From the sequence record PQ569687.1: a stretch of 64,000 nt of DNA; one strand, written 5' to 3'. This stretch comes from Klebsiella phage vB_Kpn_K54_rec1. Every line of letters begins with the position of its first letter. Position 1 is the first letter of the stretch. Positions 26,023 through 31,384 of the stretch are shown here, piece by piece. The position numbers and the translations under genes were made by a program. The notes under the pieces are model-generated. The model did not search any database. It was not told the DNA's origin and was given only the letters and a program-made list of their open reading frames with translations.

Positions 26023-26532
26023 ATGACACTCTCGCAAGAGTACGTTAGGAAGTTGTTTGAATACAGAGATGGTAAACTTTACCACAGATTAAGGCCCGCA
26101 ACAAACAGGTTCAACAAAACCTTCAATACCAAGTATGGCGGTAAGGAAGCTGGAAGCGTGATGAACACAGGGTACATTGAGATAAGCACCCCGTTAGGAA
26201 GATTTCTCGCTCACAGGGTGATTTTCTTGTACCATCATGGATGGCTTCCTGATGTTGTGGATCACGAAGACTGCAATCCTCAAAATAACCACGTAGAAAA
26301 CCTGAGACCCGCAACAACAAACCAAAACATGCATAATAGTAGGAAAAGGGTCACTAACACCTCCGGCCATAAGTGTGTCTACTGGAAAGAACATGCTGGT
26401 AAATGGCAGGTGCAGATCTGTGTTAACAGAAAACAAATCCACTGCGGATATTTTGACAGTCTTGAAGAAGCGGCAGATGTAGCTAAAAGAGAAAGAGCCA
26501 AGTACCATAACACTTTTGCGAGGGATGAATGA
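26023..26532 (+). CDS. HNH (HNH_3) plus AP2 homing endonuclease, free-standing
   Basis: HRVIFLYHHGWLPDVVDHEDCNPQNNHVENLR (HNH_3 signature) and C-terminal AP2-like CGYFDSLEEAADVAKRE; AGGAGG RBS; inserted between the primase-helicase and the polymerase. Confidence 0.8.
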   Translation: MTLSQEYVRKLFEYRDGKLYHRLRPATNRFNKTFNTKYGGKEAGSVMNTGYIEISTPLGRFLAHRVIFLYHHGWLPDVVDHEDCNPQNNHVENLRPATTNQNMHNSRKRVTNTSGHKCVYWKEHAGKWQVQICVNRKQIHCGYFDSLEEAADVAKRERAKYHNTFARDE

Positions 26533-28565
26533 GAGGTCTTTTTATAGGGGATAATGAAGCAGATGGGCTGCTTGATGAAGTTACAAAGTACCACTGCACA
26601 CTACTGAAAGAGTTTGGTGTTAACAATTGGGTCCTCTTCCTTGACCCAAACCACCCGGAATATGAAAGCGCAGTAGCTTACGCTCGTAGCAAGACAGAGG
26701 CTAACCTTAGGATTCTTTCTTATGACGAGCTGTACACTTGGTTGCAAACGGAGCCTCGCGGCATTGCGATTCACAACCTTTTTGGTTATGACCTGCGTCT
26801 GTGGAAGAAGTTATCGGGCATTGAATATGATATGTTCAAAGACCCGAAGTGCATGGGGACGATTGGGGATACACAGGTAAATCTCTACGACACTCTCTCT
26901 ATGAGCCGTGTGCTTTATCCTGACCGTCCATTGCCCAACGGTTGCCCTGACTCTGTTCTTAACCCGGTAACCGGGAAGCGAGATCGTGTAGGTCCTCATG
27001 GCCTGTTGGCCTGGGGCTACCGTGTAGCAAACAAGAAAGTTCAGATCGATGACTGGCGTAACCAACCCTTGTGGGAATACGTTAATCGTGTCTGGGAAGA
27101 CGTTTTAATCAACGAGTTAGTATGGCAATCCCTGATCGATGAATCTACAGGTGCTCGCTGGCCTGATGACAAGCAGTTCATGTACAAAGATAAACCGGAA
27201 GGGATGCGGCAGATCAACTGGAAGAACGCGCTACGCCGCCGTATGTTGACTGATTACCTGATGATTGAGCAAGAAATTCAGGGTGTTCCATTCAATAAGC
27301 ATGAAGCTGAAAAGCTGAGAGACCGTATTGATGTAATGATGAAAGAGATTGAGGAAGAAGTAGAACCTCAACTCCCGCTCAAAGAGATGACGAAGTCTCA
27401 ACAGCCAAAATTCCCTGCTAATCCTTTTGATGGTGCAGGAAGAATTTCCCATCACGGGTGGAATTGGTTAGAATACAAGCTGGGATATCCAGTTAATCGT
27501 GAAGCGCTGGAATTCAAAGGTCCACCGAAGACGGCGTTTAAAGGTAACGGTGATGTAAGTGCAGCAGGGGAAAGATACTGTATCCAGAATGGTGTTGAAG
27601 ACCCGGCAGCGATGCCAGACTTCATTAGAAGCCAGATAAAGAAAGAGAATACCCTTGTCCCATTGCCACCAGACCTAATGGAAAAGGCAATTGCCGATCT
27701 TCGTGCTGGAAAGATGCCAGACCTGATGGTTCCGATGAAGATCTCGAACCAGGACGACATCAAGAAGTACCTGATCCGCGATGCGGGATGGAAACCAACG
27801 CTCTGGCGTGTTAAAGATGTGACGAAAGACCAGTTCAAAAAGACCCGCGATGATGCGGAGATTGATGGCTTGGTGCGTAAGTACATCGAAGAACTTGGAG
27901 AGTCTGAGTATAAATCTCTGATTCTTGAGCACTTAAATAATAGTGACGCAAAGTTCAATATCTCGGAAAACAAGTTCGACCATCGTCATGGTTCTGATCG
28001 TGTTTACGAGGAGATCTTCAAGAAGTTCAGACGCAAAGCTCGTCAACTGCCGACGTCACCACAGTTGAAGGATAACTTTGGCAAGCTGTGTCCCAACCTT
28101 GAAGTTATCGATGTTCACTTGGCTAAACAGATTGTTAAGTGGCTGTCATTACGTAACCGTCGTTCTGTTCTCGACCCTATTGACGAGGATAAAAACGATA
28201 CAGGGCTGTTGAATCATCCTCGCCTGGCGATTGATGGAAAACTTCCAGCTCGTTTCTCTGGTATCACTAACACAGGGCGTTGTAAGCACACCATTTGTGC
28301 AAACATGCCTAAACCAGATCCTAAGGTGTTGTTGGGTAAAGAGATGCGTGGTCTCTGGGGTGTTACCGATGAATATTACCAGGTCGGTATCGATGGTTCT
28401 AACCTCGAAGGTATGATCGCGGCATGGGGTGCATATCAGTTCGATGGTGGTGAATACCTCCGTATCATGGAAAGTGGAGATGCCCACGCACGAAACGCCG
28501 AGGCATACACCAAAGCTTCTGGTACTCTGGTAACGCGTAACGGTGGTAAAGGGGTAACCTACGGT
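26529..28565 (+). CDS. DNA polymerase, family A (T7 gp5-like), exon 1 (3'-5' exonuclease and most of the polymerase domain, ending ...RNGGKGVTYG)
   Basis: N-terminus MRGLFIGDNEADGLLDEVTKYHC aligns with the T7 gp5 N-terminus (MIVSDIEANALLESVTKFHC). The ORF stops inside motif B (T7 RDNAKTFIYG|FLYGAG). Confidence 0.85.
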
Positions 28566-29279
28566 TAATTGATAGCCCCCTTATGAAGTAATTTATAAGG
28601 TGCATCCATTGAATTGCTGGGAAATCTGACCGAGTAATGTCGAAGATAATCAGCAGGTAAGCAAAGGCTTCCCTCTTAAGAAACCAAGAGGAGGAGATAT
28701 GGGAACATTTTGTTGTAGGATTTGTGGTGTTGTAGAGTTAAAAACTGGAAGAAATCAAAAAGTTTGTCTGTCAGAAGATTGTCAGAGAGAAGTTTCCAGG
28801 CTCAGAACTCAAGAGTACAGACGCAGAAAGGCCAAGAAGGAAGGCAGGCTTGATAGGGTTGATATAGGAAGAGGTGGTGGTCAACCAAGCGGAAAAGACT
28901 CTAAGCATTACAAGACTGGTATCGCACAGTTTCACAAGCTGGCCCCAGTAATCCGAAAAGAGCGGAGATATTGCAATAGATGCAATAAGGACTTGCTCGA
29001 AGTGGGGAAAGATGAATGGTGTGTTCATCATATAGACCACGACAGAACCAACAACGAGGTGAGTAACTTTGAGCTATTGTGCAAAAGATGCCACCAGATA
29101 GAACATAATTGTTGGGAAGCCTTTGAAACTTCAACGACTATCCGGTAACGGAGTAGGGCCAAGCGGCCCGAAGCGGTGGACACCCCAAGTGGGTGAAGAT
29201 ATAGTCTGCTCTGCATGGAAACATGCAGCAGTTCATAAGAGAACGGGCATGGTGGTAGCGTCCCATGTCGAACATTAGG
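28566..29279 (+). mobile_element. group-I-like intron 1 in the DNA polymerase gene, carrying an HNH endonuclease ORF
   Basis: The conserved polymerase sequence resumes in frame at 29280 (IMYGAQAAKIA = T7 FLYGAGDEKIG). The 714-nt insert is flanked by T (exon end) and G (intron end). RNA fold not verified. Confidence 0.65.
28699..29148 (+). CDS. intron-encoded HNH homing endonuclease
   Basis: Classic HNH motif WCVHHIDHDRTNNEVSNFELLCKRCHQIEH plus an N-terminal Cys-rich zinc ribbon. Confidence 0.8.
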   Translation: MGTFCCRICGVVELKTGRNQKVCLSEDCQREVSRLRTQEYRRRKAKKEGRLDRVDIGRGGGQPSGKDSKHYKTGIAQFHKLAPVIRKERRYCNRCNKDLLEVGKDEWCVHHIDHDRTNNEVSNFELLCKRCHQIEHNCWEAFETSTTIR

Positions 29280-30383: not shown

Positions 30384-30731
30384 GATGAATACCAGCTCCA
30401 GGTTCCTAAGAAATACTTGAAGAAGTGGGAGTTTGACACCCTGGAAGAGGCAACAGCTTTCGTAAAAGAATGGGAAGCAAAAGGCCGCGTATTTGACGGG
30501 CATGAGTGGAGAAAGGCCGTCAAAGATGAAAATGGTGATAAAGTCAAGGATGCGGAAGGCAATACAGTCTACGAGGGTATTTTTGGAGAGGATGGTAAAA
30601 TTCACATCCAGTATTGCCCTGTAGGTGAAATGGTCGTAAGATGTGTAGAGAAGGCAGCTCGTATCATGGGAAGCCCCGTGCATATTACAGGAGCATACCT
30701 GACTGGCGCTAATTGGGCACAATGTCATTGA
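30384..30731 (+). CDS. DNA polymerase exon 3 (C-terminal, ends ...GANWAQCH)
   Basis: C-terminus LTGANWAQCH matches the T7 gp5 C-terminus MGPNWAICH. It starts in frame at DE of motif C, 17 codons inside the tracked ORF. Confidence 0.75.
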   Translation, partial: DEYQLQVPKKYLKKWEFDTLEEATAFVKEWEAKGRVFDGHEWRKAVKDENGDKVKDAEGNTVYEGIFGEDGKIHIQYCPVGEMVVRCVEKAARIMGSPVHITGAYLTGANWAQCH

Positions 30732-30748
30732 TATATAAGGATTTTTAT

Positions 30749-31384
30749 ATGGAGTTATGGAAAGACATCCCCTCTTCGGAGGGGAGATATCAAGTAAGTA
30801 GCTACGGAAGAATAAAGAGACAAGAGTATTCTAGGATAAACAGCAACCAAGTTACAAGTTGGGACCAGGTATACGAAACAAAAATATTGAAACCAACGGA
30901 GGACTCTCACGGATACCTTCAAGCCTGTTACTTTGTAGAAGGGCAGAGAGTTACAGCCTTAGTACACCGTCTTGTAGCTGAAGCATTCCTTGCTCCACCG
31001 AGCCAAGAATTGATTGACGAATGCTTAAAGGCGGGTCACAAAGTTGTTCTTGTCAACCACAAGGATGGAAACCCGCTTAATAATCACGTTGACAACCTTG
31101 AGTGGTGTACTCCTTCATACAACAATGAGTATAGTCCACAAGACTATTCGAACAGATCTGGGGATAATTGCAAACACGCAGTCCTTAAGGAATCGGATGT
31201 TGATAGGATACTGGGACTTCGTGGTAAAATGAGTCAGCAGGCAATTGCCGATATGTTTGGTGTGAAGCAGATCACCATCAGCAACATCTTTACCGGGAGG
31301 TCTTGGTCATCATATACAGGCATACCTCGTAAAGAGCGTAACAAAGGAAAACGTGCAGCCAAGACTAAGCCGCTATCACAATAG
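30749..31384 (+). CDS. free-standing NUMOD4/HNH_3 homing endonuclease with a C-terminal HTH
   Basis: WKDIPSSEGRYQVSSYGRI (NUMOD4), then VHRLVAEAF...VNHKDGNPLNNHVDNLEWCT (HNH_3), then a C-terminal HTH MSQQAIADMFGVKQITISNI. AAGGA RBS; immediately after the polymerase. Confidence 0.8.
   Translation: MELWKDIPSSEGRYQVSSYGRIKRQEYSRINSNQVTSWDQVYETKILKPTEDSHGYLQACYFVEGQRVTALVHRLVAEAFLAPPSQELIDECLKAGHKVVLVNHKDGNPLNNHVDNLEWCTPSYNNEYSPQDYSNRSGDNCKHAVLKESDVDRILGLRGKMSQQAIADMFGVKQITISNIFTGRSWSSYTGIPRKERNKGKRAAKTKPLSQ

Follow-up and report, generated by a model that had tools for sequence, protein, structure and literature searches.

Two probable IA2-type group I introns and adjoining HNH endonuclease genes in the gene for the DNA polymerase of a laboratory-evolved Klebsiella Mydovirus

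Introduction

The 64,000-nt stretch of Klebsiella phage vB_Kpn_K54_rec1 under study (PQ569687.1; hereafter the window) contains a DNA polymerase gene that is split over three open reading frames (ORFs) of the plus strand (26529-28568, 29265-29618 and 30333-30731), with HNH endonuclease genes between the pieces and on both sides, which raises the question of how a single working enzyme can be obtained from such a locus. The phage is a Klebsiella Mydovirus (Vequintavirinae), a laboratory-evolved derivative of vB_Kpl_K54lambda1.1.1. An initial annotation, made from the sequence alone, had proposed a T7-like polymerase interrupted at motifs B and C by two group-I-like introns, each with its own type of HNH gene, and flanked by two further HNH genes; every ORF that it named is present in the ORF map. 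Our analysis makes it highly probable that the polymerase gene harbours two independent, mobile phage group I introns of IA2 type and is adjoined by two free-standing homing-endonuclease genes.

Boundaries of the inserts and the spliced polymerase

Comparison with intron-less relatives, which had been proposed as a check, resolves the presence or absence of the inserts to the single nucleotide. The polymerase gene of phage KpS8 is uninterrupted and matches the window by blastn in three collinear blocks (up to 28564/5, 29280-29612 and 30384-30716), and at the two junctions its protein reads ...GKGVTYGIMYGAQAAKIA... and ...RRLIYYHDEYQLQV... without a break; this puts the two inserts at 28566-29279 (714 nt) and 29613-30383 (771 nt), both on the plus strand. 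The second is also delimited by the ancestor K54lambda1.1.1, whose identity with the window is 100% throughout 24500-29612 and 30384-32900, 8.4 kb around the site, and which is without exactly 29613-30383. The placement given in the initial annotation, with a 714-nt insert between GKGVTYG and IMYGAQAAKIA and a 771-nt insert between RRLIYYH and DEYQLQV, proved exact in the first case against KpS8 and in the second against both KpS8 and the ancestor.

The three exons, all on the plus strand, divide the enzyme as follows. Exon 1 (26529-28565) encodes residues 1-679, comprising the exonuclease domain, the thumb, motif A and the first half of motif B, and ends in RNGGKGVTYG; exon 2 (29280-29612) encodes 111 residues, IMYGAQAAKIA...RRLIYYH, from the second half of motif B to the histidine before motif C; and exon 3 (30384-30731) begins with the catalytic Asp-Glu of motif C, running from DEYQLQV to the anticipated C-terminus ANWAQCH and a stop codon. 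Junction 1 corresponds to what we take to be G527|F528 of T7 gp5, within the O-helix of motif B, and junction 2 presumably to H653|D654, directly 5′ of the catalytic Asp-Glu of motif C, so that in the alignment with T7 gp5 both junctions fall inside the very motifs that had been named.

Conceptual splicing results in one product of 905 amino acids, whose alignment with T7 gp5 is unbroken over T7 residues 460-681, across both junctions (E = 3e-20), and pairs RNGGKGVTYGIMYGA with T7 RDNAKTFIYGFLYGA as well as YYHDEYQ with T7 WVHDEIQ. The product matches Pfam DNA_pol_A in a single stretch (residues 646-805) with 34.6 bits against a cut-off of 34.3; the unspliced pieces miss this cut-off, exon 2 reaching just 17.1 bits. 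With motif B (RxxxKxxxYG) and motif C (HDE) in one spliced polypeptide, the enzyme belongs to family A, and the T7-like character assigned to it earlier is borne out. The spliced mRNA is predicted to contain the junctions ...ACCTACGGT|ATCATGTAT... and ...TACTACCAT|GATGAATAC..., and its product the junction-spanning peptides GVTYGIMYGAQAAK and LIYYHDEYQLQVPK.

Insertion into conserved catalytic motifs is also a habit of inteins, and related phages carry inteins in other genes (PMC7344957), a combination which could be taken to suggest that the inserts are removed as inteins or other protein-level elements. The reading frames do not allow this: an in-frame TAA stands immediately 3′ of exon 1 (28566-28568), and the frame of exon 2 halts at AAA TAA (29613-29618, the TAA being 29616-29618). 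The HNH ORFs are moreover separate genes with Shine-Dalgarno sequences (SDs) of their own, and the inserts bear group I signatures at the RNA level. The probability of a protein-level element is practically nil, the intein reading being ruled out by the in-frame stop codons.

Group I fold of the two inserts

At the gathering threshold, no Rfam family, tRNA included, matched anywhere in the 64-kb window. In E-value mode with all 4227 families, the only matches with E≤0.001 in the window were those of Intron_gpI (RF00028) to both inserts, no further group I intron being found at this level. Intron 1 scored 39.1 bits (E = 6e-8 locally and 1.8e-6 window-wide) and intron 2 scored 39.3 bits (E = 5.2e-8 and 1.6e-6), and both cover model positions 1-253, the full model length. 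The covariance-model search suggested along with the initial annotation thus returns the expected family for both inserts, with window-wide E-values of about 2e-6.

Since the cmscan alignments were imperfect, the structures were derived by hand and by comparison. For intron 1 Rfam placed P3′ inside the ORF and for intron 2 it placed P7 before the ORF, and both placements were rejected, the covarying partners being located after the ORFs. The Rfam 3′ ends were likewise discarded: splicing at 29228 (intron 1) would meet an in-frame TAG (29256-29258), and splicing at 30335 (intron 2) would add 16 residues, ATRNGVGEINDLAKLL, which are not in the KpS8 and ancestor proteins. The approximately 50 nt beyond these ends are P9.1/P9.2 hairpins with compensatory changes.

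In the resulting structure of intron 1 (28566-29279, 714 nt, plus strand), P1 (28563-28567/28573-28577) includes the pair U28565·G28575, P10 is formed by AUCA 29280-29283 with UGAU 28570-28573, and the terminal base is G29279. The remaining helices are P2 (28579-28587/28592-28600), P3 (28605-28610/29175-29180), P7 (28665-28669/29203-29207), P7.1 (28672-28677/28686-28691, CCUCUU/AAGAGG, covering the SD of the HNH gene), P7.2 (GGGCC/GGCCC), P8 (29181-29185/29191-29195), P9 (29211-29217/29222-29228) and P9.1 (29246-29252/29263-29269). Intron 2 (29613-30383, 771 nt, plus strand) has P1 at 29609-29614/29621-29626, with U29612·G29623, P10 between GAUG 30384-30387 and CAUU 29619-29622, contiguous with the P1 part of the guide, and G30383 as terminal base. 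Its other helices are P3 (29654-29659/30281-30286), P4 (29664-29669/29722-29727), P6 (29734-29743/30221-30230), a 10-bp stem that holds the whole HNH ORF as its loop, P7 (30241-30245/30309-30313), P7.1 (GCC-GAAA-GGC), P7.2 (GACG...CGUC, with compensatory variants GGUG/CACC and GACC/GGUC), P8 (30287-30292/30297-30302), P9 (30320-30324/30329-30333), P9.1 (30339-30342/30349-30352) and P9.2 (30354-30359/30369-30374).

The U·G pair at the 5′ splice site in P1, the terminal G and P10 with the 3′ exon are thus found in both introns, and P1 is invariant in 11/11 intron-2 and 3/3 intron-1 homologues. Both introns have P7.1/P7.2 between P7 and P3′, a hallmark of subgroup IA2, and on the strength of these extra helices they are assigned as IA2-like.

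Comparative evidence is most extensive for intron 2, for which 11 homologues were aligned after trimming of the ORF-containing loops and evaluated against the named structure (P1-P9.2, including the P7 pseudoknot, P2 and P5). Standard pairs are formed in 95.6% of 758 cells, compared to 37-44% when the structure is slid by 1-3 columns, and in 40 of the 70 pairs both partners have changed. Covariation scored 0.497, where shuffles gave 0.21 (0/500 as good) and the slid controls about 0.08. Compensatory changes occur in P2, P3, P6, P7, P7.2, P8, P9.1 and P9.2, and P7 itself has undergone a double compensatory change (GGCCA/UGGUC vs GACUA/UAGUC); the core is around 90% identical to that of the corresponding CB7 intron.

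For intron 1 three distinct full-length sequences were available (window/KP12/DP, phiTE and CB7). The named structure pairs in 98.6% of cells, compared to 35-46% when slid, a percentage which is biased by the structure having been read off the window sequence; unbiased in this respect are the compensatory changes, with six pairs showing double changes in P2, P7.1, P8 and P9.1. An independent minimum free energy fold of the ORF-trimmed intron recovered P2, P4, P5/P5a, P7.1, P7.2, P8 and P9, with a z-score of -3.8. The phiTE intron at the same codon is 79.5% identical over the full length, and blastn aligns hundreds of group I introns from phages to the 3′ half (P7.2-P3′-P8-J8/7-P7′-P9-P9.1), its homologues including those of T4, of Twort-like phages and of gp5 in the T7-like Yersinia phage Yepe2. 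From their sequences and covariation, in agreement with the Rfam matches and with the fold proposed earlier, we identify the two inserts as group I introns.

On this basis, group I chemistry and the behaviour of the orthologues predict that the primary transcript would self-splice by two transesterifications. An external guanosine would attack after U28565 in intron 1 and after U29612 in intron 2, and the freed exon 3′-OH would then attack after G29279 and after G30383, respectively, yielding a spliced mRNA for the 905-aa enzyme. On an unspliced transcript, translation would end at the TAA right after each 5′ splice site.

The only serious alternative, which is disfavoured, holds that no splicing takes place and that three polypeptides, started at 26529, ATG 29265 and ATG 30333, assemble into the enzyme, after the model of Aeromonas phage Aeh1 with its endonuclease-split genes. 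In-frame ATGs do exist a few codons upstream of exons 2 and 3 (29265 and 30333), GenBank relatives annotate three 'DNA polymerase' coding sequences (CDSs), and the HNH-containing insert of the CB7 NAPRTase gene is unspliced, so that unspliced inserts exist in the subfamily (PMC7344957). The Aeh1 mobE insert in nrdA and the CB7 NAPRTase insert resemble the present case in that an HNH gene interrupts an essential gene and the fragments are annotated separately in GenBank; they differ from it in having no ribozyme, each fragment being translated on its own. Against such an arrangement here stands a complete group I core with covariation in both inserts. In addition, ATG 29265 lies within the P9.1 stem of intron 1 and ATG 30333 overlaps the P9 stem of intron 2, and an SD was sought at both and found at neither, unlike at the HNH genes. 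Such breaks would also cut through the O-helix of motif B and separate the histidine from the catalytic Asp of motif C, and the orthologous polymerase introns of CB7 are known to splice (PMC7344957). We therefore consider the assembly of three subunits very unlikely and, with a ribozyme fold present and no SD at either ATG, do not class the locus with the unspliced, mobE-type split genes.

Some points do weigh against two functional group I introns. The RF00028 gathering score of 50 bits is not reached by either intron (about 39 bits), because of the 450-490-nt ORF insertions and of the misplacement of P7 and P3′ around the ORFs by cmscan, and the Rfam alignment ends both introns around 50 nt early. 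For intron 1 the covariation rests on three distinct sequences and a structure derived from the window itself, and its P1 has just 5 bp. Finally, splicing in the window phage is predicted from its DNA, and the endonuclease activity, the target sites and the sequestration of the ribosome-binding sites (RBSs) are likewise putative.

The four HNH genes

The HNH proteins encoded in the two introns belong to different families, as had been predicted. The gene of intron 1 (28699-29148, plus strand, 149 aa) lies between P7.1 and P7.2, with its stop codon in the GUAA loop of the hairpin CCG-GUAA-CGG. Its product matches phrog_25862 'HNH endonuclease' (E = 6.4e-90), is 80% identical to phiTE_009 and contains CxxC pairs (zinc-ribbon) and the motif CxxC...HHIDHD..NN..N...CxxCH; it remains below the Pfam cut-offs (HNH_3 22.4 bits, HNH 19.2 bits). 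The gene of intron 2 (29741-30232, plus strand, 163 aa), located in the P6 loop, encodes an I-HmuI-like protein matching Pfam HNH_3 (39.6 bits) and phrog_59 (E = 8e-40), and aligns to I-HmuI itself, the nicking enzyme of the SPO1 polymerase intron (PDB 1U3E, E = 2.3e-9). Its identity to the ORFs of introns at the same site is 78% in CR9, 69% in LTH01, 55% in FV3 and 51% in SPA01.

The other two genes flank the polymerase, and at neither of them is there an Rfam match, so both are regarded as free-standing. The upstream gene (26023-26532, plus strand, 169 aa, HNH_3 and an AP2-like domain) is placed between the primase/helicase and polymerase genes, has a strong SD (aggagg) and overlaps with its stop codon the polymerase start (ATGA, 26529-26532). 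It matches Pfam HNH_3 (41.7 bits, cut-off 24.8) and phrog_99 (E = 2.6e-59) and is 41% identical to phiTE_011, which occupies the same position; KpS8 has 7 nt of intergenic spacer in place of 26021-26533. The downstream gene (30722-31384, plus strand), with NUMOD4, HNH_3 and a helix-turn-helix domain, overlaps the end of the polymerase gene and matches Pfam NUMOD4 (45.3 bits), HNH_3 (28.2 bits) and phrog_59 (E = 1.2e-46); an unrelated 176-aa ORF takes its place in KpS8. Both flanking HNH_3 genes of the initial annotation are thus present, with the reservation that the start of the downstream one is ambiguous, the ATG 30749 chosen then (MELWKDIP, where the NUMOD4 match starts; 211 aa) being one of three candidates together with TTG 30713 and ATG 30722 (used in GenBank relatives; 220 aa).

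A good SD precedes each of the four HNH genes, and within the introns these signals coincide with ribozyme helices. In intron 1 the 3′ strand of P7.1 serves as the SD, and in phiTE/CB7 the pairing of this helix is kept with different sequences. In intron 2 the P6 stem takes in the SD and the AUG of the HNH gene together with the first base of its stop codon, and is kept by compensatory changes in CR9, LTH01 and SPA01 despite being coding. In T4 I-TevI, too, the RBS of the endonuclease is sequestered by RNA structure, and by analogy we infer that ribozyme folding and endonuclease translation compete. Each intron would encode an HNH nicking endonuclease whose SD is sequestered in a helix (P7.1 in intron 1 and P6 in intron 2, the latter also taking up the AUG and the stop), and the two processes would therefore be mutually exclusive.

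All four elements, that is the two introns and the two free-standing HNH genes, are missing from KpS8, and phage G, a relative discussed below, is without intron 1 and the upstream HNH gene; the absence of intron 1 from both KpS8 and phage G is precise. By analogy with I-HmuI, I-BasI and I-PfoP3I, the HNH proteins would nick the element-less allele site-specifically. In a mixed infection this would occur near the highly conserved DNA of motif B or motif C of an intron-less allele, and recombinational repair would then copy the intron in (homing).

Distribution of the introns among related phages

The locus is collinear with that of many Vequintavirinae (Mydovirus, Seunavirus, Certrevirus and Vequintavirus). 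A tblastn survey of ten further relatives with the KpS8 polymerase protein found the first site (KpS8 residues 654|655) occupied in KP12, phiTE and CB7, and the second (765|766) in KP12, phiTE, CB7, CR9, LTH01, FV3, rV5, JEP1, PVP-SE1 and the Pakpunavirus SPA01. The spread is patchy: KpS8 has neither intron, the ancestor has intron 1 only, phiTE, CB7 and KP12 have both, and intron 2 occurs without intron 1 in CR9, LTH01, FV3, rV5, PVP-SE1, SPA01 and phage G.

The backbone of intron 2 is found with different cargoes. An I-HmuI-like HNH gene occupies P6 in the window, CR9, LTH01, FV3 and SPA01; in phiTE and CB7 a short HNH gene extends from the P5 loop through P4′ into P6; in PVP-SE1 the P7.1 region, after P7, is taken up by a LAGLIDADG gene; and rV5 (276 nt) and JEP1 (328 nt) carry ORF-less versions, as does KP12. 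In SPA01, a Pseudomonas phage, the backbone sits in the polymerase gene at the same His|Asp site. In the P5 loop of intron 2 of phiTE (around 4150-4195 of record L005) and CB7 (around 3605-3650 of L006), a sigma-70-like TTGACAGTTTGAAAAATTTGTGTATGAT and a GGGAGG SD stand directly upstream of the HNH gene, and these sequences suggest that this endonuclease has its own promoter inside the intron. The JEP1 polymerase, annotated as a single long 'DNA polymerase' CDS, contains besides its ORF-less motif C intron a further insert of about 946 nt near KpS8 residue 630 (L003, 1139-2083), which would bring the insertion sites of Vequintavirinae polymerases to three.

Probable gain of intron 2 in the laboratory

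The window phage descends from 'Mydovirus H' (vB_Kpl_K54lambda1.1.1) of a 12-phage evolution experiment, in which the recombinants isolated on K23 gained a receptor-binding protein (RBP), 'three genes encoding endonucleases' and other pieces (PMC12654880). According to its authors the gained pieces are not shared with the co-evolving Mydovirus G, and a cryptic prophage was suggested as their origin; the word 'intron' is not found in that paper (PMC12654880).

At the intron-2 site the allele of ancestor H is CTGATTTACTACCAT|GATGAATACCAGCTC, without exactly the 771 nt. Phage G (vB_Kpn_K45PH128C2) has intron 2 at the same codon, with an intron 100% identical to that of the window and no mismatch from 29553 to 30436. 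The nearest G-specific differences, at 29552 and 30437, were not imported into the window phage, and so the co-conversion tracts would be shorter than 61 nt on the 5′ side and 54 nt on the 3′ side. An ancestor without the intron and an identical copy in a co-cultured relative support mobility directly. These sequences make it reasonably probable that intron 2 homed from the co-cultured phage G into H in the course of the experiment and did not come from a cryptic prophage. A third Mydovirus is a possible alternative source; such a phage evidently donated the HNH gene 19064-19747, which is carried by K23PH08C2-like phages and not by G.

Outside the laboratory, Salmonella phage SSE121 (exons around 88%) and E. 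coli phage AV124 (exons around 95%) carry intron 2 with 100% identity, and it remains 100% identical among phages with exons of 86-95% identity, which indicates from sequence comparison that it is mobile in nature.

These observations also bear on the view that the introns are decaying relics, with an inactive ribozyme or endonuclease, immobile and merely tolerated by the phage. The sub-threshold Rfam scores and the intron-1 HNH protein below the Pfam cut-offs would fit this view, as would the ORF-less versions of intron 2 in rV5, JEP1 and KP12, which correspond to the usual cycle of endonuclease loss. Yet both intron ORFs of the window are intact, intron 2 is new in a lineage whose ancestor had none, and its complete identity across phages with diverged exons points to current mobility; splicing, in turn, must work, since this laboratory isolate is viable although its essential polymerase gene is interrupted. 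We regard decay as slightly less likely even than the assembly of three subunits, and retain the reading of two mobile group I introns.

Relation to known polymerase introns

The closest precedent is Pectobacterium phage CB7, in which RT-PCR (reverse-transcription PCR) and Sanger sequencing demonstrated that both HNH-containing polymerase introns are removed from the mRNA in vivo, while the 5′-flanking HNH gene belongs to no intron (Buttimer et al. 2020, PMC7344957). The CB7 inserts were called group I introns on their HNH content only, with no ribozyme structure and no mapping to motifs B and C (PMC7344957). CB7 and phiTE (Pectobacterium phages, Certrevirus) share with the window the subfamily, the gene, the codons (654|655 and 765|766 of KpS8) and the order HNH - exon 1 - intron with HNH - exon 2 - intron with HNH - exon 3, and intron 1 and its HNH gene are orthologous. 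Unlike in the window, their intron 2 encodes a different, shorter HNH protein behind a promoter-like TTGACA-N17-TATGAT. The arrangement is hence already known, being published for CB7 and visible without annotation in phiTE, PVP-SE1, rV5 and many others.

More widely, HNH-bearing group I introns in family-A phage polymerases are known from SPO1/SP82/Bastille, PhiI/W31, phiL7 and Pf-WMP3 (PMC3428280), and in Bastillevirinae nearly half of the polymerase genes contain one to three introns, whose cargo is mostly phrog_59 (PMC11878797). The PhiI/W31 intron is located at E. coli Pol I 'site 881', as Bonocora and Shub (2004) are cited in PMC3428280. Introns of T7-like phages (PhiI/W31, Yepe2) are similar to those of the window in being IA2, in bearing HNH genes and in residing in a T7-type family-A polymerase. 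We take site 881 to be the histidine before the catalytic Asp882-Glu883, which would make it the same site as that of intron 2; at the nucleotide level, no similarity of intron 2 to the introns of T7-like phages was detected. Intron 1 and the Yepe2 gp5 intron have homologous 3′ cores (P7.2-P9.1), and gp5 of Yepe2 is annotated as a joined CDS. The two introns are nevertheless not at the same site, that of Yepe2 lying about 10 nt (3 codons) upstream (KTF|IYG vs IYG|FLY, T7 numbering), and the Yepe2 intron encodes an unrelated Endo VII-like HNH protein.

The I-HmuI-type polymerase introns of phages with Gram-positive hosts are comparable in several respects: one to three group I introns split a family-A polymerase, the HNH nicking enzymes are of the same family as the intron-2 protein (1U3E), phrog_59 is dominant, and one conserved intron may hold highly divergent ORFs in related phages. 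They differ in their site (674, E. coli numbering, PMC3428280), in the Gram-positive hosts and in having no detectable nucleotide homology beyond the catalytic core. The T4 introns td, nrdB and sunY (IA2) show a similar J8/7-P7-P9 core, P7.1/P7.2 and an ORF looped out from a peripheral helix; unlike those of the window they lie in other host genes, and td and sunY encode GIY-YIG and not HNH proteins.

Genomic context

In the ORF map, the primase/helicase ORF (23891-25966) is followed by the HNH ORFs 26023-26532, 28699-29148, 29741-30232 and 30713/30722/30749-31384, all four on the plus strand. Over 26000-31400, Klebsiella phages vB_Kpn_K54_rec2 to rec6 share 99.8-100% identity with the window. 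Identity to rec2-rec6 is only 99.2% over 18600-20200, and 100% to rec2/rec4 over 29000-31000; the window phage is therefore none of the five recombinant records exactly and may be the sixth variant.

With respect to the ancestor, the window has a further 689-nt insertion (19069-19757; ORF 19064-19747, plus strand) between the genes for an rIIB-like protein (17829-19064) and a helicase (19749-21059). Its product is a 227-aa HNH endonuclease of phrog_953; the insertion is present in K23PH08C2, KP12 and KNP2 and missing from phage G and KpS8, and is probably another of the 'three acquired endonucleases'. Two regions, 39503-43120 and 55034-57045 (a replacement of about 2 kb), are replaced or strongly diverged (89%) compared to the ancestor. 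The first contains an ORF (42692-43123, plus strand) for a 143-aa phrog_2340, Endo VII-like zinc-finger endonuclease, just upstream of a minus-strand tail-fibre-like gene, and together the two regions probably represent the RBP swap and the third acquired endonuclease.

In the ENA records OY979426 and OY978796, with which the window was compared for phages H and G, annotation and sequence are out of register: the stretch holding the polymerase bears the labels nicotinamide phosphoribosyl transferase, tRNAs, PhoH and DprA, among others, most CDSs are flagged as partial pseudogenes, and the coordinates of the features have evidently slipped against the sequence deposited.

Implications

The proposal of an intron-split polymerase at this locus is correct and the kind of element is already known, the ancestor/descendant pair being the one point that goes beyond the textbook. 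The practical gain is mainly in annotation: in the GenBank records of this phage and of dozens of related Vequintavirinae the polymerase is divided into two or three CDSs named 'DNA polymerase' or 'hypothetical', where the correct form is a single joined CDS, interrupted by introns at 28566-29279 and 29613-30383 or at corresponding positions. The locus adds a further case of motifs B and C of family-A polymerases as recurrent homing sites, and the backbone of intron 2 circulates in Vequintavirinae and Pakpunavirus, where no fewer than three kinds of endonuclease cargo (LAGLIDADG and two HNH types) are interchangeable on it. If the transfer from phage G is true, it would constitute a clean and dated case of polymerase-intron homing between two Klebsiella phages within a community, with an unusually tight conversion tract, and the reading of the gained pieces as 'acquired endonuclease genes' (PMC12654880) would be corrected, a homing event having gone unrecognised there.

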